Source: Candidatus Babeliales bacterium (GTDB lineage: Bacteria > Babelota > Babeliae > Babelales > JBFXEV01). From it: a DNA stretch of 64,000 nucleotides. Positions 1,538-47,302 of the stretch are shown in pieces (the first letter of the stretch is position 1; the number at the start of each line of letters is the position of its first letter). The translations under genes and the position numbers were made by a program. The stretch spans positions 777,994 through 841,993 of the forward strand of contig JBFXEV010000001.1 in the NCBI GenBank assembly GCA_050179755.1, read 5' to 3'. Below the pieces are notes generated by a model. The model had not been told where the DNA came from, did not search any database, and was given only the letters and a program-made list of their open reading frames with translations.

Positions 1538-2446
1538 ATGCATATGTTAAAAAAATTAGTCAGTTTAGGATTTATATTTTATGTATGCACCATAGTGCTT
1601 ACTGCATGTACGCAAGAAACAGTAGCAACGCGATTAAATAAGAGTTTATTCCAAGTAAATAGAGAAGGCACTAAGTTATTTGGCTATAATCTTGATCTAG
1701 AACTGGCACCAACTCAATCGCCCAATGATACAGAAATTACTATTTCCGCTCATGGCTATGGTTCAAATAAAAAGCGCGGTATTAATCTTGCAAAAAATGC
1801 GCCGATGAGCGGACAGATATTGACGTTTAATCTTCCTGATTATGATTGCCTTGATAGAAAATTAAAGGCGTTGAGCCATGGCACTATCAATGAAATTTTG
1901 CCATTTCTTTATGCTCTTAAAACAGTGCTTAATGCAGGAGCAAAACGCGTTAACTTATATGGTTTTTCTGCTGGGGGCGGCGTGATAGTGAATGCGTTAG
2001 GCATTTTAAATGGTACGCGTTTTGATGCAGAGCTTACAAAAATTGGTATTACAGGATCAGATAAAGCTGCAATGCTCAAAGCAGTTGAGAACGGTATAGT
2101 GATTCTTGAAGTGCCACTTAAATCTATGGAAGGCATTATTAAAGGTCGTGGCCCATCGCAAGAACTTGAGTATATTGCACGCCAATATAAAGAAAATAAT
2201 TTGCGGCCCATTGATACGCTTGCAGCACTTAAAGGGTTAAAATTACATATCATTGTGTATTTTGAAAACCCTGATGAGATTATTTATAATGATGATGATG
2301 CTGAATACATAGAGAAATTAGAAGAAGCGAATGCGTTGGGAACCACAAAAGTTATTTTTGGAAATAATGGTGGGCATAATAGTTATCATAAAGAACTATG
2401 GGATATGTATGCCGAATGTTTGTCCGCCGTAGTTTGCCGAGCCTGA
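1538..2446 (+). CDS. Lipoprotein alpha/beta hydrolase
   Basis: Lipobox LTAC; HGYG oxyanion motif; GFSAG nucleophile elbow; D and GGH catalytic candidates. Confidence 0.8.
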   Translation: MHMLKKLVSLGFIFYVCTIVLTACTQETVATRLNKSLFQVNREGTKLFGYNLDLELAPTQSPNDTEITISAHGYGSNKKRGINLAKNAPMSGQILTFNLPDYDCLDRKLKALSHGTINEILPFLYALKTVLNAGAKRVNLYGFSAGGGVIVNALGILNGTRFDAELTKIGITGSDKAAMLKAVENGIVILEVPLKSMEGIIKGRGPSQELEYIARQYKENNLRPIDTLAALKGLKLHIIVYFENPDEIIYNDDDAEYIEKLEEANALGTTKVIFGNNGGHNSYHKELWDMYAECLSAVVCRA

Positions 2447-2524
2447 AGGCCCGGATAAACGTAGGAGGATGGTCCGCCTTCGCTAATTTTCATTAAGTTT
2501 AGTGAGAATTAAAAGTTACGGCGT
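2420..2524. repeat. REP-like GC-rich palindromes (tccgccgtag...cgtaggagga family)
   Basis: Similar to motifs at ~6755, 54660, 58857, 59095, 59263 and 59519; supplies the last codons of the hydrolase. Confidence 0.65.
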
Positions 2525-3232: not shown

Positions 3233-3809
3233 TGTAGAAGTTCCACTGAATATGCAAGAACATTATCTCTGGTGCCGCTACGCGCGGCGGCGCATGCCTT
3301 TTTTTGTGCAAAAAAAGGACGCAAAAAAGCACCAGCATTCTGCTGGACCATTCCGCTTGATCGCTGAGCGCTATACCTCACGTCGTTTCACGACGAGGTA
3401 TGCACGCAGCGCGCATAGGATCTACTAATAAAATTACATTGGGGGCCAATTGCTTTCCATCCACAGTAATAACTATAAAAATTAAAAAAGAAAATCCTAC
3501 ACGAAACGGTGGAGTCTAGTGAGAATTTCATGTAGGGAAATTCGAGATAGGCGTCTTCACCGGGAGATGGGGTGGTTAGGGGGCGAAGGCGCCCCTAACT
3601 GGTTTTTCTCCACAATCTTTTTGCCACCAAAAAGATTTGTGCGCTGCCACGCGTAGTGGCCCAGTGATAAGAAATCTGCAGAAATAAAGACTTCTTCTAC
3701 ACAAATATCAAAAATAAATGTTTGTATTTTGTCACCAAAAAGGCATGCGCCGGCCGCGGCGGGAGCGGCCCAGTGATAATGTTTTTAAATATTCAAAGGA
3801 ACTTCTACA
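3233..3809. repeat. Structured non-coding element cluster 1 (copy A + 3233-3435; copy B - ~3570-3701; partial copy C - 3737-3809), MITE/REPIN-like
   Basis: ~70 bp imperfect terminal inverted repeats tgtagaagttcc...ggaacttctaca; multiple GC hairpins; no ORF. Confidence 0.85.
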
Positions 3810-3876
3810 TCTAATAAAAAAGCGCCCTCATTCTTTGTAGAACGACGACGCTTTAAGATTTGTTTTAGTATATTTA

Positions 3877-4413
3877 TTAATCTTGGCGTTGAGACGCTTC
3901 ATCAAAAACAGTTTGCTCGTCACTTGATTTAGCCTTCTGCATGTGAGCCTTCTCTTGTTGAGCATCTTTGCGCTTACGAGATGTCACAGCTTCTGCAATT
4001 TGATGATAAGCAGAACCAACCGAATACTTTATAGTCCGAGCAATACCTTCTCGTTCTTTCCAAGCAGTCTGAGCATTTTTTGCTGTTTCTTGTGCCATAG
4101 TTTGAGCATTTTCAACGGTCATTGCATCTTTATGTTCCCAAGCAATAAACCCAACAAGCGCAAGAGCAACAAGGCGAGCAGACATTGGCCAACCGGGTTT
4201 TGCAGATTGTTTTTTTATTGCAGCATGTAGATGTTCTCTTGCAGTGTGAATTTGTTTATTGGCGGCATTAATTTGTTCGCTTAATGCGTGATATTTGCTA
4301 TTCAGTTCCCGAATGCCGGCTTCAATTTTTGCAGTAGATTGTTCTGTTCCTGTTCCAAATGCCAGTGTTGAAGCGCAACACATGAGTAATGTTAAATGTT
4401 TAAGAGTAAGCAT
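3877..4413 (-). CDS. Secreted/membrane coiled-coil hypothetical protein
   Basis: Signal peptide, heptad-rich helix, one internal hydrophobic segment; RBS aggag. Confidence 0.75.
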   Translation of the reverse strand: MLTLKHLTLLMCCASTLAFGTGTEQSTAKIEAGIRELNSKYHALSEQINAANKQIHTAREHLHAAIKKQSAKPGWPMSARLVALALVGFIAWEHKDAMTVENAQTMAQETAKNAQTAWKEREGIARTIKYSVGSAYHQIAEAVTSRKRKDAQQEKAHMQKAKSSDEQTVFDEASQRQD

Positions 4414-4483
4414 GATGCTCCTAGATGTTGTTATAAAATTGAAATTATAGCTTAGATTAACGATTTTGAGCTATTTTTCAACT

Positions 4484-6001
4484 TTAGAACGTGCCACCAA
4501 ATTTACCCCAAACTCCCCATTGAGTAAATGCTGTATTGAGTGTAGGGAATTCGCCAAATGCACCAAGCCCTGCAAAGAATGAGAAATATTTGCCTTCTGC
4601 CTTAAAGCCCACAGCAACGTGTGCACGATTAACCACTGCAGCACGAGCGCCACCAGAATAAAAATCTAAGTCTTGCCATCTGATAGGCACAAAGACCAAA
4701 TTACCATCTTCATCAACGTCATTATCTGCGAGGCAACTTATAGTGCTTTCACTTGCGGTAGGGCACACGGGCACGCAATTAACTTCAAGACCATCGGTGC
4801 CGGGCCCACCAACGCCTGCAAAACCAAATTCCTCAAGCCAAGGTTCTTTAAGGCGTGGCCACTCCGTGCTTTGCGCGTAACAACTATAGCCAAGTTGCAA
4901 TGCTACAAATTCATTATAAAATCGAAAACCGCTTGAGCCTTCAAAAAGGCTAAATGGTTCAGTGCGCACTCTGCGCGTGAGCACGTTTGCCGCTGGAATG
5001 CCACACTCACCATATATGCTATTAACCAGCATGTAGCGAGACCATGGCTTAAAGCGCACGTCAAAAGTGCGGTGTTGCGTTGCTCTAAATAAATACGTAT
5101 GTTCAAGATCTACGTAAAATGAAAATATGCGGCAATCGGTAGTGCAATTGAGCGGCATTTGAAAATTAAAACCAGAACCCATACCCCAGTGGTTATTATG
5201 CCCTAAAAAAGGATCAAATAAAAATTCTGCTTTTGCGGATTTTGCGGTGGGAATTAAGAGCATTGAATAGACGCCAAGCTCAAAACCATCATCTTTTAAA
5301 AAGTAGCTGCCGAGCCTGAAAATTATTTCAGGAACAGACGTAACACTTTCAGACTGTGTAGGGATTTTAGAAAAAAGAAGTTCAGGTCGATTGAAGGCTT
5401 GTAATAATGGCAGTGGTGCTCTGAAATTCATATCGTTTTTAACATGTTGCACTGGCAATTGAAATGAAAAATAAAAAGAAGATAACAACCAATTATCAGT
5501 AAATGGTTTAAAATCCTGTTGATATTCAAGATACGCTGCCCATTGCATTTGCTCTGGTTCAAGTGAAAGTACGCCTTCAAAATTTGGCCCTAATCCTAAC
5601 CATTCGGCACGTACGTCACGATTGATTGGTCTAACATCATCGCCTTTTACGGTGATGATGTTTTTAGGTTTTACATTAAAGTCTGAATCAAGTACATCAG
5701 TTCGTTCAGGCAAACCAAAATATCTGCCAACATGTTCTGAGCGATGTGCTTTTTGATACATACCCACCACTTGAAAAAAGCCGCCGTAGCAGTTTTTATT
5801 TGCCATAAATTCATGTGCTAAAAATTGGCGGGCTTCTATTAAGGTATATGCAGGGCGTGTAAAGAGGAATGTTTGGCTAAATTTTTCGTGTTTGCCGCTG
5901 ACTTTATATTTAAACAAGTATTGAGATGTTGGCAAAAGTTGATCTGCTATGATATTAAATGAAAACATGCAGAGTAAGGCACAGAGGCTGAACTTTTTCA
6001 T
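4484..6001 (-). CDS. Probable outer-membrane beta-barrel protein, Cys-rich (start likely MKKFSL at 6001)
   Basis: Signal peptide; aromatic amphipathic strands; C-terminal WGVWGKFGGTF beta-signal ending in Phe. Confidence 0.7.
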   Translation of the reverse strand: MKKFSLCALLCMFSFNIIADQLLPTSQYLFKYKVSGKHEKFSQTFLFTRPAYTLIEARQFLAHEFMANKNCYGGFFQVVGMYQKAHRSEHVGRYFGLPERTDVLDSDFNVKPKNIITVKGDDVRPINRDVRAEWLGLGPNFEGVLSLEPEQMQWAAYLEYQQDFKPFTDNWLLSSFYFSFQLPVQHVKNDMNFRAPLPLLQAFNRPELLFSKIPTQSESVTSVPEIIFRLGSYFLKDDGFELGVYSMLLIPTAKSAKAEFLFDPFLGHNNHWGMGSGFNFQMPLNCTTDCRIFSFYVDLEHTYLFRATQHRTFDVRFKPWSRYMLVNSIYGECGIPAANVLTRRVRTEPFSLFEGSSGFRFYNEFVALQLGYSCYAQSTEWPRLKEPWLEEFGFAGVGGPGTDGLEVNCVPVCPTASESTISCLADNDVDEDGNLVFVPIRWQDLDFYSGGARAAVVNRAHVAVGFKAEGKYFSFFAGLGAFGEFPTLNTAFTQWGVWGKFGGTF

Positions 6002-6134
6002 ATGATCCTTTTTTTTCTTCATAAGGTGAGTACGTGATATTAGCTTAGTGTCATTTTAGGTGATTGCCAAGTGCACGTTGTTTTACTAGAAGTTTGATTT
6101 TTCGATTTATTTTTTGATTTACGAAATAATTTTA

Positions 6135-7023
6135 TGTAGAAATTTATTCTTTCATTTTATGTAGCTAGCGCTGAGCGCCTGCCCGGCGAGGGCAAACTGT
6201 TTTGCTTGCCCAAAACAGTATTGACCAAAAGGGCACCAGCTCGCGCTGGGGCACCGGTGACGCCTAACTTTCCACGTATACAGCCTGCTAAAGCAGTCTG
6301 TAACGAGTAAAATAGGCTACCTAAAGTACTTTTACATTTAGGATTTTTAACAGACTTTTTTACAATCAGTTTTTCGCCTCAAACGGCCGGCTGGGCCGAC
6401 TTCATAAACTACCCTCCTTACTTTTCTCTTTACAGTGACATAGATGATTCATATTCAAAAGATTATTATGGCTTAAGATATGCACGGTTCATATGTGGTA
6501 ACATTGGTGGACTGCAATAGCGTGATGCTAAGTGAGCTATTCAGCTGCGTATCCCATTTTTAGGATAAAAAATATAAATTAACTAAAACAGGTGGATGTG
6601 TTTTTGTTTATTCTTGGACTAACATATTTTTGTAGCGCACCAGCGTAAGCGTTGTATAACATTCTATTGATAAGAAGCATCCCTTGAGGAGACCCTTAGA
6701 ACTTTTTTAAAGGTTCGCTGGGGGAGTTTATCAGCGCGGAGATACATAAGAACATCCAGCCTACGCCAATCCAGGCGTTCAGTTTGGTTGGTTACGGCGG
6801 ATAGGCTTGTTCTAAATGAAAAATTTTATTAGTGGTTCCTATGCGCGCTGTGTGCATACCTCGTCGTGAAACGACGTGAGGTATAGCGCTCAGCGATTGA
6901 GCGGAATAGTCCAGCAGAATGCTGGTGCTTTTTTGCGTCCTTTTTTTGCACAAAAAAAGGCATGCGCCGCCGCGCGTAGCGGCACCTGTGATTATGCTTT
7001 TAAATATTCAGTGGAACTTCTAC
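6135..7023. repeat. Structured non-coding element cluster 2 (copy D + 6135-~6265; copy E - 6822-7023)
   Basis: 6822-7023 is a close reverse complement of 3233-3435; block begins tgtagaa and ends gaacttctac. Confidence 0.85.
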
Positions 7024-7063
7024 GTTATGTGAGTCATACCTTTATATTTAAAAACCTTTTTTA

Positions 7064-17856: not shown

Positions 17857-19635
17857 TTATTCACCGGCAAGTATAAAGTCAGAAATAGCCCAACCAACAA
17901 GCACCGCTGGAGTTCCTGTGTTACCATCAGGTACGTATGGCAAGATTGAATTATCAGCTACACGTAGACCTTTAGTACCAAACACACGACCATGCGGATC
18001 AACCGCAGCTACATCAGGAGTCAGACCAGCTGGGGTTGAAGACGTATAGTGATGGGATTGGAAGGTAGTAGCCAGAAGGTAATTTTCAAGTGCGGCTGTA
18101 TCATTAATGACATCTAGTGATGGTTGCAAAAGTGTCCATGTTTGCCCATTAGGCGCAGGATTATTTGAAAAATATTCAGTTAGATCTGCGACGAAGTTTT
18201 GGAATGCTTGAACGCATGTAGCCAAATCTGCCGATGTTCCACCAGGCCCCTCTGTATCACCGAAATAGTTTCCACTAACAAGTGGTATTTTAAATGGATC
18301 ATCATTCTGAATTGCGATAGTTCCTACGCTTACAGGATTTAAATGAGCAGGTCCTAAAAGCATTAAATCAGGAGCCAGTTGGACAGTAACCCATTGCATT
18401 TCACGCGGTGCAGATTGAGGATCCCCTACAATAGGTGTAATCGATGGTAAAAAGGCAGTTGCTGAATAGAGAGCCCACGGTTCAGTTGGAGGGACGAGTA
18501 CTGCACCTGGAATGGAGAACAGTGCAAATGGAATCGTATGATTGTAAAAGAATCCCACATTATCATTCTCAACACGTACCGGTACACCGGCAGCATTAAG
18601 TATGTCTTTTGGCCCGATACCATTACGTTGCAAGAACTGTGCACTTTGGAATCCAGCAGAAACAATTACTTCTTTGCGAGCAAAAATCTCATGGCATTCG
18701 CCATCTTGTGTATAGCGAACACCAATTACTTTATTTTTTTTGTTCCAAAGAAGATCAATTGCAGTTGCACGTAAATGCACTCGCAGTTTTCTGCCATTAA
18801 CTCCAAAACCATTAGGAGTCATTACATCAGAATTTAAGAAGGCAAATGCAGTGCTTTCTCTCAAGAAAATATCACCCACTGGCCGCACTTGATTATCACT
18901 TCTGAGACTTGTACCAATAGGTGTTGTTGGGTCATTGTAATCATCAATTATAGGCGAATTGCTGGCTGCTGCCATTGCGTTAGCCAGATAGTGATTATCT
19001 TCAGTGGGAGTAAATGCCAGTGCTACATTAGTCCATGGGCCATTTGTGCCACGTGCAGGGCTAGCAACAAAAGGTGCTATAAACGTTTCAAGCTTTTTGT
19101 AACGTGCAAGCGTTTTGTCAAGCGACCAATCGGGTCCAAGTAAATCGGCCATGTTTGACCAGTAGGTATTACTTCCACGTACCACGATCATGCCATTAAT
19201 AGAGGAACTACCGCCCAGTAGCCTTCCTGCTGTCCACTGAAAGCTTCTATTATCCATTTGCGGTTGAATGACTTGTTCACCTTGCCAGAAGTAATAGGGG
19301 TAATAATTGGGCAACAAATTCAGGTAACCACTTGCAGGAACTTCAATCACTTCATCATTATTGTTATTATCCCCAGCTTCAAGACCGATAACTGAGGTTT
19401 TCTTATCATTTGTTAAGCGATTGGCAATCACAGCTCCAGCGGTACCCATGCCAATGATAATATAATCGGCATCGTAATGCTTTTTTTTCTTATGTTTTGG
19501 TTTGCAAGGCTTAATGGGTTTTGTGCAGCAAATTTTTGTTTGATCGGCAAATAATGCTACTGGTGAGAATGCTTGCAAGAGCAAACTCCAGGCAAGAATT
19601 CTTGCTATTTTTTTTTGAATGTTTAGTTTCATCAT
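17857..19635 (-). CDS. Secreted GMC (glucose-methanol-choline) family FAD oxidoreductase 1
   Basis: DYIIIGMGTAG, LEAG, GRLLGGSSSING, EVIVSAG, HHY, GLRVADNS, GNT (His/Asn pair); N-terminal signal peptide. Confidence 0.95.
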   Translation of the reverse strand: MMKLNIQKKIARILAWSLLLQAFSPVALFADQTKICCTKPIKPCKPKHKKKKHYDADYIIIGMGTAGAVIANRLTNDKKTSVIGLEAGDNNNNDEVIEVPASGYLNLLPNYYPYYFWQGEQVIQPQMDNRSFQWTAGRLLGGSSSINGMIVVRGSNTYWSNMADLLGPDWSLDKTLARYKKLETFIAPFVASPARGTNGPWTNVALAFTPTEDNHYLANAMAAASNSPIIDDYNDPTTPIGTSLRSDNQVRPVGDIFLRESTAFAFLNSDVMTPNGFGVNGRKLRVHLRATAIDLLWNKKNKVIGVRYTQDGECHEIFARKEVIVSAGFQSAQFLQRNGIGPKDILNAAGVPVRVENDNVGFFYNHTIPFALFSIPGAVLVPPTEPWALYSATAFLPSITPIVGDPQSAPREMQWVTVQLAPDLMLLGPAHLNPVSVGTIAIQNDDPFKIPLVSGNYFGDTEGPGGTSADLATCVQAFQNFVADLTEYFSNNPAPNGQTWTLLQPSLDVINDTAALENYLLATTFQSHHYTSSTPAGLTPDVAAVDPHGRVFGTKGLRVADNSILPYVPDGNTGTPAVLVGWAISDFILAGE

Positions 19636-25031: not shown

Positions 25032-26789
25032 TTATTTTCCTGCACGGATAAAATCGGCAATTGTCCAGCCAATTAATACTGCAGGCGTTGCGGTGTTGCC
25101 GTCTGGTATTACAGGCAAGATAGAAACATCTGCAACGCGTAGACCTTTTACGCCAAACACGTGGCCATAAGGATCAACAACGCCATTTTCTGGTGACAGA
25201 GCAGCTTTTGTTGTTGAGCAATAATGGTGCGCTTGAGAAGCATTTGCTTTAATGAAGGCAATAAGAGCGTCTCGATCCATCATTACATCTTTGGTAGGAG
25301 CTATGAATGTCCATGTACCTTTAGGAGATGGATTTGCTTCAAAATAGTTTTCTAAGTCTAAAGCAAAGTTTTGATACGCGTCCGCCAACTTATCTATATC
25401 TTCAGGATTACTCAACAAGTTTGCGTCAGCAAGAGGAATTTTGAGTGGATCATCATTTTGGATTGCAACTGAGCCAACACTTTTTACACGCATTAATCCT
25501 GCACCAAAGAACAAAAGTTCGTCACTCAGTGGTGTAGAAATCCATTGAATATCACGCAACGTATTATTTGGATCTGCAGGTGGTGTTACGGCAGGTAACA
25601 TAGCACCAGGTCCCCATACTGCCCATGGTTCCGCTGGTGGAATTATTTCTGTGCCTGGAGGTATTTGAATTAAACTACCGATGTAGGTATGATTTACTAG
25701 TTCGCCCACATGAGGATTATCTACACGCACTGGCACGCCAGCTGCATTAAGAATGTCTTTTGGTCCAATGCCATTACGTTGTAAGAATTGTGCACTTTGG
25801 AAACCAGCACACACAATAACTTCTTTACGTGCAAATAGAGTGTGGCATTTACCATCTTGCGTATAACGAACGCCAATTACTTTATTATTCTTCCAAATGA
25901 GATCAATGGCGGTAGATCTTAAATGCACTCTTAATTTTCTACCATTTACACCAACACCATTTGGAGTCATAACAGTTTCATCTAAGAAAGCATAAGAAGT
26001 TGCTTCGCGTAGAAATGAGCCATTTTCTATACGTTCTTGAGTATCCCATTGCAAGAAAGCGCCGTTAGGTGTTTCTGGATTATTAAAATCAAGAACCGGT
26101 GGCATACCACTCACCACAGTCATTGCATTAAATAAATATTGATCATCTTCCGTTGGATTAAATGGTAATGCTATATTAGTCCACGGCCCGTTAGTGCCTC
26201 GAGCAGGGCTTGTAGGAAAGGGAGCAATGTAGGTCTCTAATTTTTTGTATCGTTTGCGCGTTTTTTCAAGTGACCAATCTGATCCAAGAAGCGCTTCTAT
26301 TTCCGACCAATATGCGTCAGATCCAAGCACGACTTGCAGGCCATTAATAGAGGTTCCGCCACCAAGAAGCCTTCCTGATGACCACGCGTATGATTGGCCA
26401 TCAAGTTGGAATTGTGGAACACCCTCGCCTTGCCAGAAATATTGTGGATAAAAGAATGGGAACAAGAAGAAATATCCTTGTTCTGGAATTATAATTACCG
26501 GGTCTTGGCTGTTATTATCACCTGCTTCAAGACCAATCACTGAAGTTTTTCTATCTTTAGTCAAGCGATTGGCAATCACCGCTCCAGCTCCGCCCATGCC
26601 AATGATAATGTAGTCTGCATCATAATACTTTTTGTTCTTGTGTTTTGGTTTGCAAGGTTTAATTGGTTCCGTGCAGCAAATTCTAATTTGCTCGGCGAGT
26701 AATGTAATAGGAGAGAGTGCTTGCAAGAGAATACTTGCAAGCATTGTTATTGCTAATTTTTTTTTGAAGCATTTATGCATTGTTATCAC
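25032..26789 (-). CDS. Secreted GMC family FAD oxidoreductase 2 (paralog of 17857..19635)
   Basis: Same motif set (GMGGAG, GRLLGGGTSING, HHY, GNT); shared ICCTxPIKPCKPKHK segment. Confidence 0.95.
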   Translation of the reverse strand: MITMHKCFKKKLAITMLASILLQALSPITLLAEQIRICCTEPIKPCKPKHKNKKYYDADYIIIGMGGAGAVIANRLTKDRKTSVIGLEAGDNNSQDPVIIIPEQGYFFLFPFFYPQYFWQGEGVPQFQLDGQSYAWSSGRLLGGGTSINGLQVVLGSDAYWSEIEALLGSDWSLEKTRKRYKKLETYIAPFPTSPARGTNGPWTNIALPFNPTEDDQYLFNAMTVVSGMPPVLDFNNPETPNGAFLQWDTQERIENGSFLREATSYAFLDETVMTPNGVGVNGRKLRVHLRSTAIDLIWKNNKVIGVRYTQDGKCHTLFARKEVIVCAGFQSAQFLQRNGIGPKDILNAAGVPVRVDNPHVGELVNHTYIGSLIQIPPGTEIIPPAEPWAVWGPGAMLPAVTPPADPNNTLRDIQWISTPLSDELLFFGAGLMRVKSVGSVAIQNDDPLKIPLADANLLSNPEDIDKLADAYQNFALDLENYFEANPSPKGTWTFIAPTKDVMMDRDALIAFIKANASQAHHYCSTTKAALSPENGVVDPYGHVFGVKGLRVADVSILPVIPDGNTATPAVLIGWTIADFIRAGK

Positions 26790-39419: not shown

Positions 39420-40526
39420 TTATGTATGGTCTGTTGCAGCGGGTGATGCTTTTGAGTTAGTCGCTGCAGCTATGTATGGTGATTTTTGGATAACTCGATT
39501 AATGCTTTGTATAATCTCTTGCCTCAATTGTGCTTCGTTGTATTGTGGTAAATATTTTTTTGCTAAAGCTAATTTTTCTTTTACAATCTCAGGAATTAAT
39601 TCAACAGCAATCCTATGGCCTATTTCGGCAGGTAGCGGCAATAAACCTTGTTCTCCCCGTGATTTGCTTGTTAAAGTTATTATTGCAGGGATTACGTGTT
39701 GAACTTCCTGGGGGGTGGCGGATGTAAGGAGTGCTTTTAAACTCATGAGAATGCTGTGCTTAAAGTGTGATTGCACACGCTGTGTATTATATTCATTTAA
39801 AGCTCTATTGAGTGGTGTGCTGCCTGATTTATCAGGGGTATTCATATCTGCACCAGCTTCAATAAGTGTTGCAACTGTTGCGGCACTGTCCTGTAGATAT
39901 AATGCTGCTTTATGTAAAGGCGTTTTTCCGGCATCATTTTTAGCATTTATAGGTAAACCTTTGCCAAGAAGCACTGTAATTGCATTTGGTCGCACATGGT
40001 GAGCTGCAAGATGTAACAATGTATTGCAGTCACGGGTTTTTACATGTACATTTGCACCAGCATCAAGCAGCATATCTAAGATAGTCTCATCACTGGCAAA
40101 TGTATTTAATTCTTTAATTAATGGCGTATGATCAAATCTATCTGTGGCTTCAAGGTCAGCATGTTCATCAATAAGCATTCTGACGGCCAGAGCTTTATCA
40201 GTGATGATTGCACTATGCAGTGCAGTTTTACCGGTACTGCATCTAGCATTTTTATTTGCACCAGCATCAAGCAGTACACGCATTGCCTTAGTAGAGCCAC
40301 GTAAAGCAGCTGCCATGAGCGGAGTTCCGTCCAAAAAACTATAGGCCTCTTTATTAGCTCCTGCATTAAGAAGGCGCTCAACTTCTTGTGCGTCATCTTG
40401 CTTTGCAGCTTTAAATAATTGTTTATCTAGTGGCGTTAGCGCTTGGTGCATGGCATTCGCTGTATTTATAACTTGCAACAAAAAAGCGATTACAAATAGT
40501 GAGAATATATTTTTTAGGGTATACAT
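39420..40526 (-). CDS. Secreted ankyrin-repeat protein with C-terminal F-box-like motif (start likely MYTLKN at 40526)
   Basis: GTPLMAAA, GKTALHSA, GKTPLHKA repeats; LPLPAEIGHRIA. Confidence 0.9.
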   Translation of the reverse strand: MYTLKNIFSLFVIAFLLQVINTANAMHQALTPLDKQLFKAAKQDDAQEVERLLNAGANKEAYSFLDGTPLMAAALRGSTKAMRVLLDAGANKNARCSTGKTALHSAIITDKALAVRMLIDEHADLEATDRFDHTPLIKELNTFASDETILDMLLDAGANVHVKTRDCNTLLHLAAHHVRPNAITVLLGKGLPINAKNDAGKTPLHKAALYLQDSAATVATLIEAGADMNTPDKSGSTPLNRALNEYNTQRVQSHFKHSILMSLKALLTSATPQEVQHVIPAIITLTSKSRGEQGLLPLPAEIGHRIAVELIPEIVKEKLALAKKYLPQYNEAQLRQEIIQSINRVIQKSPYIAAATNSKASPAATDHT

Positions 40527-40654
40527 AAGGACTTTCATGAGGTTGCCAAGCTATTATAGGCTGATTTATTTCATTTAGTATACCTTAAAATGGGCCTTCA
40601 ATGCTATAGTACAAGTTTCTGATGAGGGTGCTAGAAAGGCGTGATATTATTCAA

Positions 40655-41395
40655 TTATATCTTTGTAGCAGTTTGCAGCATGCTTGCATGAAGCCATGTT
40701 TTTTTAAGCTCCCAAGATGGGATAAGATAGGCTAAAGGATGCCCTGACATAAAATATGAGCAAAAACCTACAACCTCGCCCAATGAATTAACCGCTGGGC
40801 CACCAAGATGTGTGAAGTTGTCTTCAACTTGAATCCAGCCATCTGGTTCTTTACCTGATACCGTTACTTGGTTAGCAGATATAGTATGTTCCTGCCGAGA
40901 CTTGCTACCGATAATTAATAGTGTATTACCTCTCTGAACTGCTTCGGAATTGCCAAGCGGCAAGGTAGGTAACTTTTTACAACTTTGTATAATTGACTGC
41001 ACATCTACATTTCTTAATTGTAATACTGCTAAGTCGTTGTCAGGAGTTACAAAAGATTGATACGCTTCAAACAATTGCCCACCGCATGCTTTTAAGGTTA
41101 TTTGTATATTTCTTGCTTGATTAACTAAATGAAAATTGGTAAGAATAGCGCCATCTTCGCTTACAATAAAGCCGACTCCATAACGCATATATTCTTTAGG
41201 TTCTTTTTGAGGTTGCAGTATATCTATTTCATGTATTGTAGCGGCAATATGCACGATGGCATTTTCTGAATCATTGCGGATTGCGCTCCAATCAAATTCT
41301 TGTGTAGCAGCTAAAGAATGTGCAAGGGTTAATGAAAAAACTGATAAAATGAATGGTTTAGGCATTATATTTGTTTCTATTTGAAATTTTAACAA
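40655..41395 (-). CDS. Trypsin-like (HtrA/S1C) protease-domain protein lacking the catalytic Ser
   Basis: GVGFIV, ILTNFHLV, DLAVL, LPLGNS; THLGGP in place of GNSGGP. Confidence 0.8.
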   Translation of the reverse strand: MLKFQIETNIMPKPFILSVFSLTLAHSLAATQEFDWSAIRNDSENAIVHIAATIHEIDILQPQKEPKEYMRYGVGFIVSEDGAILTNFHLVNQARNIQITLKACGGQLFEAYQSFVTPDNDLAVLQLRNVDVQSIIQSCKKLPTLPLGNSEAVQRGNTLLIIGSKSRQEHTISANQVTVSGKEPDGWIQVEDNFTHLGGPAVNSLGEVVGFCSYFMSGHPLAYLIPSWELKKTWLHASMLQTATKI

Positions 41396-41507
41396 TAATT
41401 AAATATGTTTTTATTATAATTTATTAGATAAAGAAAGCAATTTTGTATTGTTTCCTATACAGGATTATTGCGTTTTTTAAGATAAATGAGTACCTATTAT
41501 TTTACTA

Positions 41508-41536
41508 TTGACCGACGGTCGGTCTAGTGCTATACT
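41508..41536 (+). promoter_or_regulatory. Sigma70 promoter overlapped by palindromic operator, probably for the TetR
   Basis: TTGACC-N17-TATACT with TG extension; gaccgac-g-gtcggtc palindrome at 41510-41524. Confidence 0.75.
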
Positions 41537-41582
41537 AGTACTATAATCATGAGTAAACCTTTTATAAGACAGATTGGACCCT

Positions 41583-42389
41583 ATGGAAAGTGTGTATCAT
41601 TACAAACCTATTCAATTTTTTCTAGCCGTGCTATCAATTAGCCTTAGTGCGGGATTTGCAGCAGCTTACGCAAGTTATCAGCAAGGCATGGCGTGGCTGC
41701 AATTGCTTGGTATGCTTATAATGTTGTGTACGCCATGTGGTGTGGCAATATACATGATTTATAGATCAAAAAATGCACATGTACGGCAGGATTTTTGGCG
41801 GCGATTACACATGCCAAAAATAACGGGCATGTCTTTGTTGATACTAGTTGCGCTCATGCCTGTTACGCTGTTTTTGGCAACGTCAATTTCTTTATTGTTT
41901 GGTTATTCAGCTAATCAATTTAATCTTTCACCGGAATTTGCAGGTGGGCCAGGGCAGATTGCAATAAGCTTACTGTTTGTTCTGGTTGTAGCATTGCTTG
42001 AAGAACTTGGTTGGCGCGGATATGGTGTGAATAGCCTCAGGTCACGGTATAATTTATTTACCTCGAGTATGTTATTTGCAGCTTTCTGGGGGTTATGGCA
42101 TGTGCCGCTCTTTTTTATCAAAGATTATTATCAATATAATCTATGGCAAGCGAGTAGTATCTATACGCTGAATTTCTTTGCCAGTTTGGTGCCGGCAACC
42201 ATCTTGATGAATTGGCTCTATTATAAAAATAATCGCAACATCATTATTTGTGTACTTTTTCATGCCATGCTTAATCTTAGTGCGATGCTTTTTCAAACTG
42301 AGCAGTTTACTAAATGCATTATGACTTTTCTCTTAATGCTAGTTTCGGTTGCCCTTGTTAACCGAGATAAAAAATTATTTTTTACTTAA
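41583..42389 (+). CDS. CPBP/Abi (CAAX-type) intramembrane protease 1 (start likely ATG 41583)
   Basis: EELGWRGY, WGLWHVP, FH..LN motifs. Confidence 0.93.
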   Translation: MESVYHYKPIQFFLAVLSISLSAGFAAAYASYQQGMAWLQLLGMLIMLCTPCGVAIYMIYRSKNAHVRQDFWRRLHMPKITGMSLLILVALMPVTLFLATSISLLFGYSANQFNLSPEFAGGPGQIAISLLFVLVVALLEELGWRGYGVNSLRSRYNLFTSSMLFAAFWGLWHVPLFFIKDYYQYNLWQASSIYTLNFFASLVPATILMNWLYYKNNRNIIICVLFHAMLNLSAMLFQTEQFTKCIMTFLLMLVSVALVNRDKKLFFT

Positions 42390-42411
42390 TTATTAATATT
42401 GGAGATCGATT

Positions 42412-43038
42412 ATGGTGAGAACCGTAAAAAAGCCTGAAGATCGCAAAGTAGAAATTATAAGTGCGGCTCGGCATTTATTTGAGCTTAAGGGGTATGATAA
42501 AGTTACCATGCAAGATGTCATGGGCTTTTTGGGCGTAGCCAAGGGTACTATTTATCATTACTTCAAATCAAAAGAAGAGCTTTTTGAGGCGGTAATAGAA
42601 GACATTGTGGATACTAGTATTGAGCGCATGCAAATTCTTTTGCAAGAAGCAACTGGAACTGCATTAGAAAAAATGCAAATGCTGATAGCAGCTGGCAATA
42701 TAAGTGTGGAACATGAGAAGCTATTGGGCGCCCTCCATGCGCGTAATGATGTTATGCATGCACGACTTCTTGCTCGTGCAGTAACAAAACAAGCTGTTGT
42801 GTATGCGCAAGTAATTGAGCAAGGTTGTAAAGAAGGCGTTTTCCAAACAGAGTCGCCGCAAGAAGTAGCAGAGTTTATGCTATCAGGTGTTCAGTTTCTC
42901 ATTGATAAGGGCATTTACCCTTGGACGCATGAAGATCTTGTGCGTAGAGCAAATGCCTTTCCAGGGATACTTGAAAATCTTTTGAAGGCGCCAAAAGGAT
43001 CATTTGATTTTTTACCTAATTTGTTAAACAGTAACTAA
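42412..43038 (+). CDS. TetR/AcrR-family transcriptional regulator
   Basis: LFELKGY..VTMQDV...GVAKGTIYHYFKSKEELF. Confidence 0.96.
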   Translation: MVRTVKKPEDRKVEIISAARHLFELKGYDKVTMQDVMGFLGVAKGTIYHYFKSKEELFEAVIEDIVDTSIERMQILLQEATGTALEKMQMLIAAGNISVEHEKLLGALHARNDVMHARLLARAVTKQAVVYAQVIEQGCKEGVFQTESPQEVAEFMLSGVQFLIDKGIYPWTHEDLVRRANAFPGILENLLKAPKGSFDFLPNLLNSN

Positions 43039-43047
43039 GGATATTAC

Positions 43048-43866
43048 ATGTTAAAGACGTATACATATAAACCATTATCATTCTTTTTAACCGCGTTTAC
43101 TATAAGTTGGGCGCTGTGGGCTTGTGCAATTTATGTAAGTTGGCAGCCAACAATGCAATCTCTTTTAATGCCATTAGTTCTTGGCGGTATTGCAGGCCCT
43201 GCACTAGCTTCATTATTCATCTTAATCAAATCACAGAATAAAGAATTGTGGCATGATTTTATTGAGCGGTTACGGCCGGGTAGGATTACAAAGAAGTTTA
43301 TTCCTGTTGTATTGTTCTTATTTCCGTGCCAAATAATACTTGCAATAGCAATATCTTTATTGTTTGGTCAATCGGCAGATCAATTTGGCCTGAGCACACA
43401 GTCTTCTGACCAAGTGTTGCAAGGAATCAATGCTTTGATGATTATAGTGGTGGTATTTCTTGTGGGTCCGCTTGAAGAGTTAGGTTGGCGCGGGTATGGT
43501 ATTGATAGCTTAAAAACAAAATTCAGTCTCTTTAAAGCGTCTTTACTTTTAGGCGTTATTTGGGGCGCTTGGCACGTGCCGCTCTTCTTGATAAAGAATG
43601 GTGCCTATCAAGAGATATGGAGTTTAGGTTTAGTGCATACGTCACTGTATTTTGTTGATTTAGTGCTGCTTACCATAATCAACAATTGGTTATATTATAA
43701 AAATAATCGAAGTATCTTAGTTGCAATTATGTTTCATAGTATTTTAGATATTTGCATGAGCATTTTTCATATAACGCCAGTTACCTGGATTATTCTTACG
43801 TTCATTTTACTCTTTACATCAATTATTATCATTAGGAAAGATAAAGAGCTATTTTTTAATAAATGA
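43048..43866 (+). CDS. CPBP/Abi intramembrane protease 2
   Basis: EELGWRGY, WGAWHVP, MFHS; paralog of the upstream CPBP. Confidence 0.93.
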   Translation: MLKTYTYKPLSFFLTAFTISWALWACAIYVSWQPTMQSLLMPLVLGGIAGPALASLFILIKSQNKELWHDFIERLRPGRITKKFIPVVLFLFPCQIILAIAISLLFGQSADQFGLSTQSSDQVLQGINALMIIVVVFLVGPLEELGWRGYGIDSLKTKFSLFKASLLLGVIWGAWHVPLFLIKNGAYQEIWSLGLVHTSLYFVDLVLLTIINNWLYYKNNRSILVAIMFHSILDICMSIFHITPVTWIILTFILLFTSIIIIRKDKELFFNK

Positions 43867-44016
43867 TTTTTAAGCAAAAACGTTTGGTTTAGAAAAGCTG
43901 TTATTTTGGTTTAAAAAAATAACTCAGTAATATGGCATATTTCTGTGCGTTTTGCGCTGGTAATCACTGTGGAGTAGCTTCTATAGCATTACAAAGTGTG
44001 AATATGAGTCTAAAGT

Positions 44017-44793
44017 TCAAAGCGTAGCCTTTTTTGTAGCTTTTACGATATACGTAGGATTTCCAAAGGTATACCGTGGGCCAAGCCGTTCCACATTATT
44101 AAAATTATGTGTCTTAAAAAATGCTTCATATTCCTGCCAAGTATCAATATCCATAAGAGCTACCGCACCGCCCGGCTTGAGTACCCGCATGATCTCCAAA
44201 AGTGCCTTCTTTCGTTCATGCTCTCCAGAAATATTATGAAGAGCCCAACTTGATATGATAATATCAAAGCTATCCGTATTAAATGGCATCTTGCGTGCAT
44301 CAGCGGTAATAACTTCAATGCGATTCGATACGCCTTCTAACTGGGCATTCTCAAGTGTAGCTGCCGCATTGTTTTGGGTTTGGTCATCGATGCACCAAAT
44401 ATCAATGCCTGTGGCTTTGCCCGTTTTTAATTTTTTGGCAGCACTTAGGAGTAATAATCCTCGACCACACCCTACATCAAGAATTTGTTCATCACCCTGA
44501 ATAGTTATTAAGCTTAATAACCAATCACGTTCTCTGAATTTCAGTTTACGGCTTCCATACATAATGGTCATTACTGGGTAGAGCATGCTCAACGCGCTCA
44601 ATAACAATGCACCGATAATAAGCCAACTGATTATGGGATACGTTGTATGTAAAGCATAATGTGCTATAACAGAGCATAGTATTAGTACAACACTCATTAT
44701 GCTACACATGCGTATAACTTTGGGGGCGTCATAGCCATAATCTGGTTTATTTAGCTTTGCCATATATTCCTTATTGTGTTGAATAATATTCAT
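44017..44793 (-). CDS. Class I SAM-dependent methyltransferase with N-terminal TM helices
   Basis: ILDVGCGRG, GIDIW, MPF..SFD, RVLKPGG. Confidence 0.93.
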   Translation of the reverse strand: MNIIQHNKEYMAKLNKPDYGYDAPKVIRMCSIMSVVLILCSVIAHYALHTTYPIISWLIIGALLLSALSMLYPVMTIMYGSRKLKFRERDWLLSLITIQGDEQILDVGCGRGLLLLSAAKKLKTGKATGIDIWCIDDQTQNNAAATLENAQLEGVSNRIEVITADARKMPFNTDSFDIIISSWALHNISGEHERKKALLEIMRVLKPGGAVALMDIDTWQEYEAFFKTHNFNNVERLGPRYTFGNPTYIVKATKKATL

Positions 44794-45065
44794 AATATAG
44801 CATTTTATGACTTTTTACTACTGTTTTTTTAGTGCAATTAGAAAGAACGTTTTGGGTGAACAAGATCAGCCATTGGAGCAATAATAATAATAATTTCATG
44901 ATGCTTTTTCCAAAATTGCTTGATCTTGATAGTATATTAATACTACAGTGAATAGTGGGGCTTTCTATTGATATTGGGAAATGTTGGGTAAGCATGATCT
45001 TAAATAACCTTTATCCGAATCTGTACAGAGACGGATCCATTTGAATAGACGTATAGGGATATATT

Positions 45066-46868
45066 TTGCGCATCGCAACCATTATTGTTTTAATTATTAC
45101 ACTGTTGAGTGGCCTCTATTTTTTTAGGAAATTGCATATGCAATCACATGATAATTCTTTAAGCACTGGAGTAATCCAGGTAGATCAGTTTCAGCTGGGG
45201 TACCAAGTTATTGGTCAAGGAAAGCCAGCACTTGTTATTGGCAGCGCGATTTTTTATCCTCGAACATTTTCTAAAGATTTGGCAGAGCACTTACGCATGT
45301 ATTTTATTGATCATGCAGGGTTTGCACCAGTTCCCGCAGAATCTATTGATAATTCCCGCTTTGATCTTGATCATTTAATCAATGATATTGAAACAATGCG
45401 TAAAGCGCTTGATCTTGATAAGTTTATTATCATTGGGCATTCAGGGCATGGGTATTTAGCGCTTGAGTATGCAAAGCGTTATCCGCAGCATGTAACCGAA
45501 GTTATTATGATAGCCACTGCGCCTAATTTAAGCCCGGCAATACATCAGGCTGCCGATGACTATTTTAATCAAACGGCGACTGCTGAACGTAAGCAATTTC
45601 TTGAGCACAATCTAGCGAAGCTTCCACAAGAACTCGCAGCGCATCGAGAAAGAAGATTTGCGATTGTCTTGCAACTCCTGGGCGCACGCAGTTGGTTTGA
45701 TTACCGCTATGATGCAGCGCCTCTTTGGCAAGATGTATTTATGAACATGCATGCCATTGATTATATGTGGGGCGTTGTATTTCGTGATATTGATATTACA
45801 AAAGGTTTAGAAAAATTTGAAATACCGGTGTTATTAGTGCTTGGCAACTATGATTTTTTAATACCAGAATCAAGAGTGTGGGATTCTTATAAACCTAAAT
45901 TTAAGGATTTAACCGTGCATGTGCTTGAGCAAAGTGGGCATACGCCGCAACTTGAGCAACCGGAGTTATTTGATAAGATCGTGCTTGAATGGTTGCAAGA
46001 AAAAGAACAATTGAATGGACAACTTACGCGGGAGCGTCTTGTTAACAACAATGGTGTAACACTTTGGGCTCAAAGTTTTGGTAACCCTAAAAATCCTGCC
46101 ATCTTGTTAATTTCTGGCGCTGGAGCGCCTGCTGCCTTTTGGACCCCAGAATTTATTAAGCATTTTGTTGATAATAATTATTTTGTGATTCGTTTTGATA
46201 ATCGCGATACTGGTTTATCTTCTGCAATTGATTATGAGAAAGCGCCTTACACTGCATTAGATTTGGCGAGTGATGCAATTGCTATTTTGGATGCCTATCA
46301 TATAAAAAAAGCACATGTGGTGGGTCATTCAATGGGGGGACTTATTGCGCAACTACTCGCTATTTATTACCCGGAACACATTTTGAGCATTCATTCACTA
46401 TCAATGGGCACTGTTGGCGGCATTGGTGCGCCACCGCAAGAAGTGATGCAAGTGCTTATGGCAAATAAACCCACACAAAATTTTCAAGAAAGTTTGCCAG
46501 GTTTTATGAAGTCGTGGCAAATTTTAAATGGTGATTTGCCTTTTGATAATGCATTAGCTACTGAATATACGCGCGATATGTACGTTCGCTCACATCATCC
46601 GGTAGGCGTTGCATGGAATCACATTAAAGCACAAGAAGGATTTGCTGATTTAAAGAAAGAATTGGCGTCCATTAAAGTGCCGGCATTTTTTATTCACGGA
46701 GAAAAAGATCCACTTATCCCCGTGCAAGCTGGTATTGCTACAGCTCAGGCAATTCCAAATAGCAAAATGGTTGTTGTTCATAGTATGGGGCATATGATGT
46801 TTAATAGAGATTTAGAACATGATATTGCCAACATTATACTAGATAATTTACAATCCGTTAAAGATTGA
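45066..46868 (+). CDS. Tandem double alpha/beta hydrolase with N-terminal anchor
   Basis: Two domains: GHSGH...D...SGH and DNRDTG...GHSMGG...HGEKDPL...MGH. Confidence 0.9.
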   Translation: MRIATIIVLIITLLSGLYFFRKLHMQSHDNSLSTGVIQVDQFQLGYQVIGQGKPALVIGSAIFYPRTFSKDLAEHLRMYFIDHAGFAPVPAESIDNSRFDLDHLINDIETMRKALDLDKFIIIGHSGHGYLALEYAKRYPQHVTEVIMIATAPNLSPAIHQAADDYFNQTATAERKQFLEHNLAKLPQELAAHRERRFAIVLQLLGARSWFDYRYDAAPLWQDVFMNMHAIDYMWGVVFRDIDITKGLEKFEIPVLLVLGNYDFLIPESRVWDSYKPKFKDLTVHVLEQSGHTPQLEQPELFDKIVLEWLQEKEQLNGQLTRERLVNNNGVTLWAQSFGNPKNPAILLISGAGAPAAFWTPEFIKHFVDNNYFVIRFDNRDTGLSSAIDYEKAPYTALDLASDAIAILDAYHIKKAHVVGHSMGGLIAQLLAIYYPEHILSIHSLSMGTVGGIGAPPQEVMQVLMANKPTQNFQESLPGFMKSWQILNGDLPFDNALATEYTRDMYVRSHHPVGVAWNHIKAQEGFADLKKELASIKVPAFFIHGEKDPLIPVQAGIATAQAIPNSKMVVVHSMGHMMFNRDLEHDIANIILDNLQSVKD

Positions 46869-46881
46869 TTTTTTGTGTCTT

Positions 46882-46927
46882 AAACCTTAAGAAGCTCTAC
46901 ACGTAAATATAGAGCTTCTTAAGGTTT
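46882..46927. terminator. Long bidirectional terminator hairpin
   Basis: aaaccttaagaagctcta...tagagcttcttaaggttt; copy at ~50439-50474. Confidence 0.8.
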
Positions 46928-47302
46928 TTACTGCTTTGAGCCAAAAAGTTTATTATACCAGCTTGTATCTGCGGCTTGTTGTTCTTCATATCGTTTTTTT
47001 AGATATGAGAATGATTGTTCTGCATTAGCATCTTCAACACGCATTGGATAAACAAAACGAGTTCCTGGCGTTTGTTGCATCTTAGTTTGTGCACCCCAAA
47101 ATTTGCCTGTTTTTTTATTGTGACATGCAATATCTGGGCCTTCTGGGCTCGCAGGTAGGCTATAACATTCTTCAAATTCGCTGAATTGTGTGCGTTCAAC
47201 TTTAGTTTTTGCTGGTTTTTTTTCCATAGCATTTGCTGTGTTCATAGCCTGCATTACTAAAGCAATCGCAAATAGTGCAAATATATTTTTTACTGTAGAC
47301 AT
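46928..47302 (-). CDS. Small secreted protein (two Cys), family member 1
   Basis: Signal peptide ...NTANA then MEKK; ECY..IAC motif shared with 47342. Confidence 0.8.
   Translation of the reverse strand: MSTVKNIFALFAIALVMQAMNTANAMEKKPAKTKVERTQFSEFEECYSLPASPEGPDIACHNKKTGKFWGAQTKMQQTPGTRFVYPMRVEDANAEQSFSYLKKRYEEQQAADTSWYNKLFGSKQ

Follow-up and report, generated by a model that had tools for sequence, protein, structure and literature searches.

Paired intergenic repeats with a predicted triple-helix pseudoknot in a Candidatus Babeliales genome

The window, a 64,000-nucleotide stretch of the genome of a Candidatus Babeliales bacterium, carries two composite elements built from related arms. The arms are multi-copy and paired, and covariation of their stems, pseudoknot and third strand, strand asymmetry, shuffling of arms and empty orthologous slots were all observed. 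They are best explained as non-coding repeat pairs that likely fold as single-stranded DNA on the strand opposite to that first read, and that likely form a mobile unit which is non-autonomous and relies for copying on an enzyme encoded outside it, an explanation that we hold with about even confidence. The elements are a variant of a barely described kind, the closest described one being the extended TwoAYGGAY doublets of Pseudomonas.

Arms in the window and beyond

A sequence-only reading of the window had noted five related units, A to E, all of which are real and lie where it put them. The extent given for A held; B and D reach further, to about 3482 and 6421, and the terminus of E lies at 7024 (Table 1). 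Contigs from three DNA runs, which may derive from the source sample, span the junctions of the units, so these are not an assembly artefact. Pairwise comparison showed 94% complementarity between A and E (202 nt) and 85% between A and C (40 nt). Composite element 1 has a counterpart, an alpha plus gamma composite, at genome positions 1262956-1263573 (92% over 370 nt), and stacked extra heads like C also occur at 775444, 1021311 and 1263573. The centre of element 2 holds a 34-nt epsilon-like piece near 6693-6727 and, at about 6748-6805, one copy of a small hairpin repeat of another kind. Arms end in a small dyad with the consensus GTAGAA-N-TTCYAC, located 40-43 nt outside P1 in the 31 arms measured; its letters vary between lineages and only the dyad shape is kept.

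Table 1. Positions in the window of the two composite elements, their arms and the predicted parts of the arms.
Feature	Positions	Strand	Remarks
Composite element 1: A facing B, truncated extra head C outside B	3233..3809		577 bp
Arm A, alpha type	3233..3435	+	predicted working strand -
Outer segment of A	3233..3273		terminal dyad 3234-3246, then fixed-length, fast-diverging spacer
Hairpin P1 of A	3274..3288		loop is a C-GNA-G cap when read on the - strand
Predicted triple-helix pseudoknot of A	3297..3332	-	short helix GTGC:GCAC, T-rich third strand, T/A-rich stem
Alpha body of A	3332..3412	-	hairpin P3 3332-3346 and long hairpin 3368-3412
Arm B, gamma type	3482..3701	-	predicted working strand +
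Predicted triple-helix pseudoknot of B	3600..3637	+	third strand mirrors AAAAAGA, G position included
Truncated head C	3727..3809	-	terminal dyad, spacer, P1, broken P2; stacked outside B
Composite element 2: D facing E	6135..7024		890 bp
Arm D, delta type	6135..6421	+	predicted working strand -
Predicted triple-helix pseudoknot of D	6196..6235	-	6-nt loop type, the form also seen in Proteobacteria
Element 2 central stretch	6422..6822		mostly single-copy DNA
Arm E, alpha type	6823..7024	-	predicted working strand +; pseudoknot module 6925-6960, terminal dyad 7011-7023

The genome contains at least 43 arms, 40 found by nhmmer and three by covariance model, and 11 of them are of the alpha type. 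They occupy 23 intergenic sites, 16 with heads at both ends, as facing pairs. Nine sites lie between divergent, 11 between co-directional and three between convergent genes (background 201, 430 and 112), and a role as terminators in this genome was rejected on site orientation, no terminator-side bias being present. A model of the end module built from nine arms matched 21 of 150 order-level relatives, and a broader model matched 18 of 150 Pseudomonadota; strict filters were used in scoring, and genomes counted as negative may hide arms. Pattern matches, as a measure of copy number, vary between 1 and 134 per genome. Phage records gave no match to the element and plasmid records five, none of them annotated. 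Among viral contigs a model match (E up to 0.1) was obtained in 7 of 60 pattern loci, and in none of the 19 loci of a second scan; two candidate loci came from a third.

Fold and working strand

An arm would run from its body hairpins through a pyrimidine triple-helix pseudoknot, hairpin P1 and a spacer to the small terminal dyad. The pseudoknot is predicted from sequence to be of the telomerase-like H-type with a parallel pyrimidine triple helix, and covariation of stems and pseudoknot supports the earlier proposal that a single-stranded fold of this H-type is under selection. The letters first given for P1, P2 and the loop:downstream pair were recovered, except that the pseudoknot of B, although present, pairs as TGG:CCA and not TGGT:ACCA in the register anchored on the A-run. 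The A-run noted before was also found, its role now corrected to that of the mirror image of a third strand.

In the stem alignment (149 distinct rows) 96.3% of cells are paired, two-sided changes occur at 14 of 16 pairs and the covariation score is 0.622, compared with at most 0.125 for slid partners; this alignment had been fitted to the model, and two of five measures fell within shuffles (85 and 154 of 500). The loop and its downstream partner could be parsed in 35 of 40 arms and gave 23 distinct classes, 17 with at least three pairs. Their summed score was 67 versus 31.5 ± 5.2 for cross-paired classes, with 0 of 100000 shuffles as high, a figure that overstates significance because the classes are related. 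Four pseudoknot pairs are kept in one register by 149 of 194 distinct heads with a 6-nt loop. At position 3 of the third strand, the stem/linker state is A/A in 104, T/C in 28, G/G in 13 and other in 4 of 149 heads, and mirror matches total 347 versus 295 ± 4.7 (76 classes; 0 of 20000 shuffles as high), these and all other counts being run over related sequences.

On the strand read by the sequence-only reading, interior mismatches of P2 in 176 distinct stems are A.C in 49 cases, G.T in 7 and other in 10, an asymmetry that has the same direction in all three sequence groups. Among 204 arms, C-GNA-G triloop caps number 84 on the opposite strand versus 8 on the strand first read, GCGNAGC 123 versus 12 and cUUCGg 0 versus 1. 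Wobble pairs (49 versus 7) and the DNA-type C-GNA-G caps thus point to a fold on the strand opposite to the one originally assigned. Wobble pairs in P1 conflict between counts, 7 versus 0 in favour of the strand first read in one and 2 versus 7 in the other. The T/C state of the third strand reads as a G.T-A triad, the triad favoured at T-A inversions in parallel DNA triplexes, a preference left unstated in the two triplex papers checked for it. GCGNAGC is described, in the available part of PMC13037366, as a very stable DNA mini-hairpin.

These features suggest that the working form is likely single-stranded DNA rather than RNA. Counted against DNA are an enrichment of GNRA tetraloops on the same working strand (18 versus 0), the detection of a related Rfam family by RT-PCR, described below, and the RNA nature of such folds, the triple-helix pseudoknot being otherwise an RNA fold. 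In telomerase RNA and the SAM-II/V riboswitches the major groove of an A/U-rich stem accommodates a pyrimidine loop. Those pseudoknots are likewise of the H-type and, as far as the accessible text of PMC11848209 goes, belong to single-copy RNAs with a known partner or ligand, whereas the module here caps a dispersed repeat.

The arms might instead encode structured RNAs, each transcribed outwards from the middle of its pair, with a pseudoknot that shields the 3′ end or serves as a protein-binding site and with spreading as a secondary matter, a possible though doubtful alternative. G.U wobbles and GNRA loops on one strand would suit such genes, and pyrimidine triple helices form in RNA where purine ones do not (PMC4666352, accessible part); however, C-GNA-G caps outnumber GNRA loops 84 to 18, cUUCGg is absent from the working strand, promoter-like sites were not in excess in element 1 or 2 in a promoter scan, and the wide range of copy number also argues against RNA genes.

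Relation to described elements

The family had been put forward as a candidate undescribed one, which holds in part: in other bacteria homologous ends lie 3′ of TwoAYGGAY matches and under RF02421. At gathering score Rfam returned three tRNAs only from the window, and a search of 20 loci by E-value gave nothing above gathering score. The literature searched for this fold gave no description besides a preprint on extended TwoAYGGAY doublets with a 3′ pseudoknot in Pseudomonas and Pseudomonadota (Li et al., bioRxiv 10.64898/2026.09.22.753630). As presented in the accessible part of that source, these resemble the arms in being intergenic and multi-copy with very variable copy number, and in forming divergent doublets a few hundred bases apart with the 3′ pseudoknot on the outward-pointing strand, so that paired layout and 3′ pseudoknot are already on record there. 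They were read as RNAs, possibly Csr/Rsm sponges, and the preprint's main text, to the extent accessible, names no triple helix, DNA fold or cargo. The elements described here differ in having bodies of several unrelated types and a host outside Pseudomonadota. In one genome (G283) model heads lie directly 3′ of RF01731 (TwoAYGGAY) matches on the same strand, as RNA genes would have it. RF01731, which models a pair of AYGGAY-loop hairpins, has 15 matches in that genome, but none in the present one (G000) or in G001, G058 and G176, and AYGGAY is absent from arms A, B and D, both of which count against RNA genes. In extended TwoAYGGAY elements an array of GMTBT repeats, each 5-6 nt long, lies upstream; here such 5-mers occur 1 to 8 times per strand in six elements with no array seen, counts for which no null was computed. 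TwoAYGGAY doublets, so far confined to Pseudomonadota and read as RNAs, are thereby widened to a larger family whose members have the end module in common rather than the AYGGAY loops.

On the working strand, RF02421 (Bp1_Cand684_SIPHT) spans P1 plus the outer segment in homologous arms; its model begins beyond the pseudoknot and takes this piece for a small RNA. It scores 65.6 and 59.5 bits in genome G275, above gathering score, and only 20.8 bits on one head of the present genome (gathering 44), with no match at gathering in the window. Its position on the working strand in G275 and its detection by RT-PCR in another species (accessible part of Khoo et al. 2012, PMC3521395) both favour RNA genes. 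On the bolder reading set out further below, which we consider unlikely, TwoAYGGAY and RF02421 would both turn out to be fragments of single-stranded DNA mobile elements wrongly filed under RNA families.

For 25 years natural triple helices have been proposed in bacterial DNA, to our knowledge with no function assigned to them, and PIT/BoxC triplex repeats were reportedly described by Hoyne et al. in 2000. For the triple helix predicted here, three-way covariation is seen across phyla and on a single defined strand, at the end of a come-and-go element able to bracket cargo, so that the question could be put to the test using short oligonucleotides and carriers in culture (Polaromonas, Pseudomonas fluorescens). 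PIT/BoxC/TMECO repeats share with the arms a mirror-repeat hairpin plus third strand, an intergenic location, occasional inverted pairs and variable flanks, as given in the accessible part of Holder et al. (2015, PMC4666352), where a pseudoknot is not mentioned. TMECO is there a 34-36 nt G/C motif with short loops, in contrast to the A/T-rich triplex locked by loop pairing within arms of 200-290 nt, and its G/C-rich consensus with loops of 3-6 and 3 nt is not matched by the arms, which do have the hairpin and mirror-repeat third strand.

REPINs, according to the accessible part of Bertels and Rainey (2011, PMC3116915), are non-autonomous, intergenic inverted doublets of long persistence, as the arms are, but the arms are much longer and more complex, have no cognate repeats at the Y1_Tnp genes tested and, in this genome, show no bias towards the terminator side. 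Terminal inverted repeats as in DDE-type MITEs are present, with imperfect ends. The Pseudomonas putida repeat Ppu-1 was rejected as a member of the family because it is a coding repeat; the P. fluorescens repeats R200 or R26 may resemble these arms.

Mobility, outer segment and cargo

The MITE- or REPIN-like layout first noted stands as regards the facing pairs; membership of REPINs does not, there being no RAYT link, and no target duplication was found at the pairs. That the arms are ordinary REPINs or MITEs moved by a Y1 (IS200-like) transposase, TnpB elements or a DDE transposase is largely refuted and very improbable, in spite of the inverted pairs with a GTAG-like terminus and of one Y1_Tnp and two TnpB genes in this genome. 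No head lay beside Y1_Tnp or TnpB at the 26 of 33 loci searched, 8 of 14 element-positive relatives lack Y1_Tnp, 5 of 20 genomes without matches have it, and neither a linked RAYT/IS200 gene nor cognate repeats around any Y1_Tnp gene tested were found. Conservation of the terminus between lineages in dyad shape only also speaks against these transposases, as does the result for target duplication (over 11 pairs the summed length was 22, versus 18.7 with the ends shuffled, and 543 of 2000 shuffles reached that value).

Other partners fared no better. No recurring mobile gene was seen beside 80 proteobacterial and 80 metagenomic loci, where an autonomous parent with the same ends was also not found (160 foreign loci, DDE families not taken singly), and neighbour clustering and Pfam scans returned host genes only. 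Reverse transcriptase, which the sequence-only reading had suggested looking for, does not occur in this genome (96% complete) and was rejected on its absence here and from most carriers (present in 3 of 40 genomes and in 3 of 20 element-positive ones). IS91-type Y2 transposase gave no match in a search whose control also matched nowhere. GIY-YIG was found in every one of the 40 genomes owing to a long match of UvrC size, and was rejected since short matches are seen whether or not the element is present and the long one is all that G163 and G176 have. That no partner enzyme or target duplication was found, and neither an empty allele nor a circle among the sequencing-run contigs examined, is counted against our preferred explanation.

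Empty sites were found in one relative: both window slots are without heads in the same-genus genome G001, where that of element 2 holds a DnaJ-domain gene. Of 13 sites in G001, 7 have no element-flanking orthologue in the present genome and 6 are common to both, 4 of these with different arm types. Many copies are therefore long-standing residents, a picture that agrees with gene conversion and with transposition alike. Arm types are shuffled between pairs in this genome and, in Polaromonas, around a central palindrome; across Polaromonas species orthologous slots keep their elements with changing content. The empty slots, the unshared G001 sites, the shuffling and the enclosed genes described below favour mobility.

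Differences between A and E number 8 of 41 in the outer segment versus 6 of 161 in the rest, and in general divergence is much faster over the outer 41 bases than over the remainder of the arm, the outermost TAGAA being the best conserved part of the outer segment. Outer-segment identity does not track body identity, in a comparison that includes one mis-anchored Polaromonas arm. A pre-existing host target as the source of the outer segment was rejected: free copies do not exceed chance expectation, and the roughly 27 bits carried by each end are more than two chance sites could supply. In G275 both ends carry nearly identical outer segments, which is counted against our explanation.

Old resident repeats of the PIT/BoxC/TMECO kind that are not actively transposed, and in which the triplex stalls replication or repair, gene conversion both evens out and swaps cores, edges drift and genes come and go at fragile sites, are an improbable alternative. 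The shared G001 sites with exchanged arm types, the Polaromonas slots, the independence of outer and body identity and the lack of an enzyme or target duplication all agree with it, as do TMECO loci with raised flank variation and inverted pairs (PMC4666352, accessible part). Conversion alone, however, does not create new sites, and conservation of TAGAA at the extreme end, the chance level of free outer segments and a fold kept across phyla with one strand preferred also count against resident repeats.

If the arms are mobile single-stranded DNA, the folded end may be the signal read by a mobilising or repair enzyme, recombination at the inner junction would shuffle arms and let genes enter between them, and the outer segment would be recopied with errors or left out of gene conversion. 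A bolder version, which we consider unlikely, is that these are cross-phylum single-stranded DNA mobile elements with DNA triple-helix pseudoknot ends, in which an unrecognised or host enzyme would read the end, copy the outer 40 bases anew and with many errors whenever the element moves, swap arms centrally and carry captured genes such as interbacterial effector cassettes. Between the arms of G275 lie PAAR, Tae4 and an unknown ORF, and between those of G102 two unknown ORFs.

Arm copies, extents and anatomy

All five units that the sequence-only reading had placed in the window were recovered, with the extents of B (~3570-3701) and D (6135-~6265) drawn too short, since B reaches ~3482 and D ~6421. 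A and E are 94% complementary across 202 nt, and the unit junctions are covered by contigs of three DNA runs from one study. The proposed search for further copies in the genome under study (G000; 1.53 Mb, 39% GC), whose contig C1 carries the window at 777994-841993, returned 40 arms (single units) in 22 intergenic clusters by iterated nhmmer (E < 0.05). A covariance model supplied three further heads (end modules), which brings the total to 43 or more arms over 23 sites. Heads occur at both ends in 16 of the 23 sites, giving elements of 360-890 bp.

On the strand of the first reading, each arm runs from a terminal dyad through a spacer, P1, P2, a linker with an A-run, the pseudoknot strand and P3 to a body, with 40-43 nt between terminus and P1 in 31 arms. 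Arm bodies are of several types, shuffled between pairs in G000: alpha with beta (four pairs), alpha with delta (three), alpha with gamma and gamma with delta (two each), and other combinations. Polaromonas aquatica has the same layout, with three body types swapped around a central palindrome. Three Polaromonas arms (L287, L292, L294; genome G176) carry a 51-nt hairpin insert within the third-strand linker. In genome G102, four tandem 110-nt degenerate-head copies precede a full head as a head-only array, and at L505 and L491/L509 (genomes G335, G277) heads lie tail-out, ~90-120 nt apart, opposite to the usual orientation. A second small hairpin repeat family has many copies in G000 and in G001, a genome of the same genus; those inside several heads disrupt P2.

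Coordinates of repeat units and of other features observed
Feature	Location	Strand	Remark
Unit A	window 3233-3435	+	alpha body; faces B
Unit B	window ~3482-3701	-	gamma body
Unit C	window 3727-3809	-	truncated extra head outside B
Unit D	window 6135-~6421	+	delta body; faces E
Unit E	window 6823-7024	-	alpha body
Second hairpin repeat	window 2417-2473, ~6748-6805, 54644-54712, 59077-59145
Second hairpin inside heads	genome 80093, 775444, 1263573, 1355245
Duplicated gene blocks	window 18554-19576 and 25705-26724		~7.15 kb apart
Paralogous gene starts	window 40449-50889		common upstream DNA
ATP-dependent DNA ligase gene	G000:C1:698481-699476		Pfam
Ligase-like ORF	G000:C1:1020353-1021288		by eye
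Y1_Tnp-like gene	L001:1426-1857 (G000:C1 ~216900-217330)	-	143 aa
TnpB-like gene, two copies	L002, L003 (G000:C1 391924, 1420952)		~370 aa; no transposase within 3-kb locus
Head-only array	G102 L144:3098-3502
Tandem secreted-type proteins	G102 L142:5862-14107		three, 815-884 aa; cysteine-rich repeats

Predicted pseudoknot, third strand and working strand

For loop/downstream pairing, the 23 distinct G000 classes reached a score of 67, cross-pairing of the classes gave 31.5 +/- 5.2, and none of 100000 shuffles scored as high; parsing failed for five of the 40 arms, and six classes had fewer than three pairs in the tested register. With all loci taken together, four pseudoknot pairs form in one register in 149 of the 194 distinct heads that have a 6-nt loop. 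The H-type pseudoknot suggested as a candidate is thus supported, and at the level of sequence it is real. Stem pairing had also been said to persist despite sequence change, and this held: in an alignment that had been fitted to the model, 96.3% of cells were paired, with two-sided changes in 14 of 16 pairs and a covariation score of 0.622 (<=0.125 for slid partners), while two count measures were no better than shuffles. The repeat is real and, as a predicted structure, well supported.

The linker mirrors the purine strand of P2. Third-position states (stem/linker) in 149 heads were A/A 104, T/C 28, G/G 13 and other 4, and mirror matches in 76 classes numbered 347 (shuffles 295 +/- 4.7), with none of 20000 shuffles reaching the observed number. 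Read on the opposite strand, these states correspond to predicted parallel triads, namely T.A-T, G.T-A and C.G-C; in DNA, G.T-A would be the preferred triad where a T-A pair is inverted.

Interior P2 mismatches in 176 distinct stems, counted on the first strand, were A.C 49, G.T 7 and other 10, with identical direction in G000 relatives, Proteobacteria and metagenome loci; another count gave 29 versus 9 in the same direction. Hairpin caps in 204 arms comprised 84 C-GNA-G triloops on the opposite strand versus 8 on the first, 18 versus 0 GNRA tetraloops, and 0 versus 1 cUUCGg. P1 was ambiguous (7 G.T and 0 A.C in one count, 2 and 7 in another). Since P2 mismatches and caps agree, the working strand, as judged from sequence, is the opposite of the one the first reading implied, and each pair would therefore run from its centre towards both ends, in the order body, pseudoknot, P1, spacer and dyad. 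The cap counts, together with GCGNAGC, a very stable DNA mini-hairpin according to the available text of PMC13037366, favour single-stranded DNA over RNA as the working form. Telomerase RNA has the same kind of H-type pseudoknot with triple helix as that predicted for the arms. That the arms are RNA genes is possible, if doubtful. We give about even odds to arm pairs being a non-autonomous element that works as folded single-stranded DNA.

Occurrence in other bacteria and relation to described repeats

A model built from nine G000 arms matched 21 of 150 other genomes in a phylum sample, all of the same order and often as facing pairs; by DNA similarity, among 40 relatives, strong matches came from the same-genus genome only. 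The nine-arm model also scored heads in Betaproteobacteria, Methylococcales, a Bacteroidota record, Pasteurella and metagenome contigs, and a broader model matched 18 of 150 other Pseudomonadota genomes (E <= 1e-5). In 40 genomes selected for having a match, pattern counts reached 134 per genome versus 0-2 in the reversed control.

Comparison with Rfam gave no match to the repeat in the window, but in other bacteria two families adjoin or cover homologous heads: RF01731 (TwoAYGGAY), on the working strand, sits 5′ of model heads, and RF02421 (Bp1_Cand684_SIPHT; Khoo et al. 2012, PMC3521395) spans P1 and the outer segment. The available text of Li et al. (bioRxiv 10.64898/2026.09.22.753630) describes extended TwoAYGGAY elements, found mostly in Pseudomonadota, that have a pseudoknot on the 3′ side, occur as divergent doublets (68.4%) and reach 202 copies; Csr/Rsm binding and mobile-element-like spread are suggested for them; no triple helix appears in that part of its main text. 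The G000 repeat is alike in layout and end module but lies outside TwoAYGGAY membership, because G000 has no RF01731 match and A, B and D contain no AYGGAY. The family had been proposed as undescribed; doublets with a 3′ pseudoknot are already in that preprint, and the G000 repeat, which lacks the AYGGAY domain and has a host outside Pseudomonadota, is a newly found form of these recently and thinly described repeats. PIT/TMECO repeats, as far as PMC4666352 is accessible, share the triplex idea and differ in sequence and pseudoknot.

Site turnover, end divergence and candidate mobilising genes

Both window slots are headless in G001, and one carries a DnaJ-domain gene instead. Six of 13 G001 sites adjoin orthologues of element-flanking G000 genes, four with different arm types; many sites are therefore old. 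One Polaromonas slot holds, by species, a doublet, a doublet plus peptidase gene, a half element and another gene, or a gene alone without element; the element there begins right behind stop codons, and the small dyad at its end differs in sequence. In genome G275, genes for a PAAR protein and a Tae4-family protein, plus an unknown ORF, lie between two arms spaced 2.4 kb, and in G102 two arms surround two unknown ORFs. The DNA ligase gene flanks an element site common to G000 and G001 and the ligase-like ORF another, either of which could be chance.

Identity across 11 alpha arms is 68% in the outer 41 nt (60% in the spacer) versus 91% in the head and 90% in the body; most outer changes are transversions (63 of 98), most body changes transitions (42 of 51). 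Between A and E, 8 of 41 outer positions and 6 of 161 inner ones have changed (p = 0.002). Of 12 close arm pairs, 11 have 8-14 outer differences, and the remaining pair consists of two internal heads. The outer segments of P. aquatica have an identity of 0.52-0.55 regardless of body identity, nine pairs at >=97% included (flanks 0.45-0.47). The nearly identical ends in G275 are a counter-example, and no free outer segments were found above chance. Error-prone copying of ends and gene conversion of cores would each produce the outer divergence. Resident triplex repeats maintained by conversion seem unlikely, and the folded single-stranded DNA element is preferred.

The suggested link to RAYT/IS200-605 or reverse transcriptase genes was not borne out. 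The one Y1_Tnp gene in G000 stands alone, no heads lie near its two TnpB genes, Y1_Tnp is absent from 8 of 14 element-positive relatives, and reverse transcriptase is absent from 17 of 20 positive genomes, G000 included. REPIN membership, on the RAYT link in the consulted portion of PMC3116915, does not extend to the G000 repeat; target duplication was not found, and that the arms are an ordinary REPIN or MITE is highly improbable. No recurring mobile gene was found beside foreign copies, nor any bias of elements towards gene ends in G000. Short GIY-YIG genes were rejected as partner, their occurrence not following the element. The 143-aa Y1_Tnp-like protein has an acidic tail and may be a domesticated IS200 transposase; its gene precedes an MFS/nucleotide-transporter-like gene, and G001 holds a similar single match.
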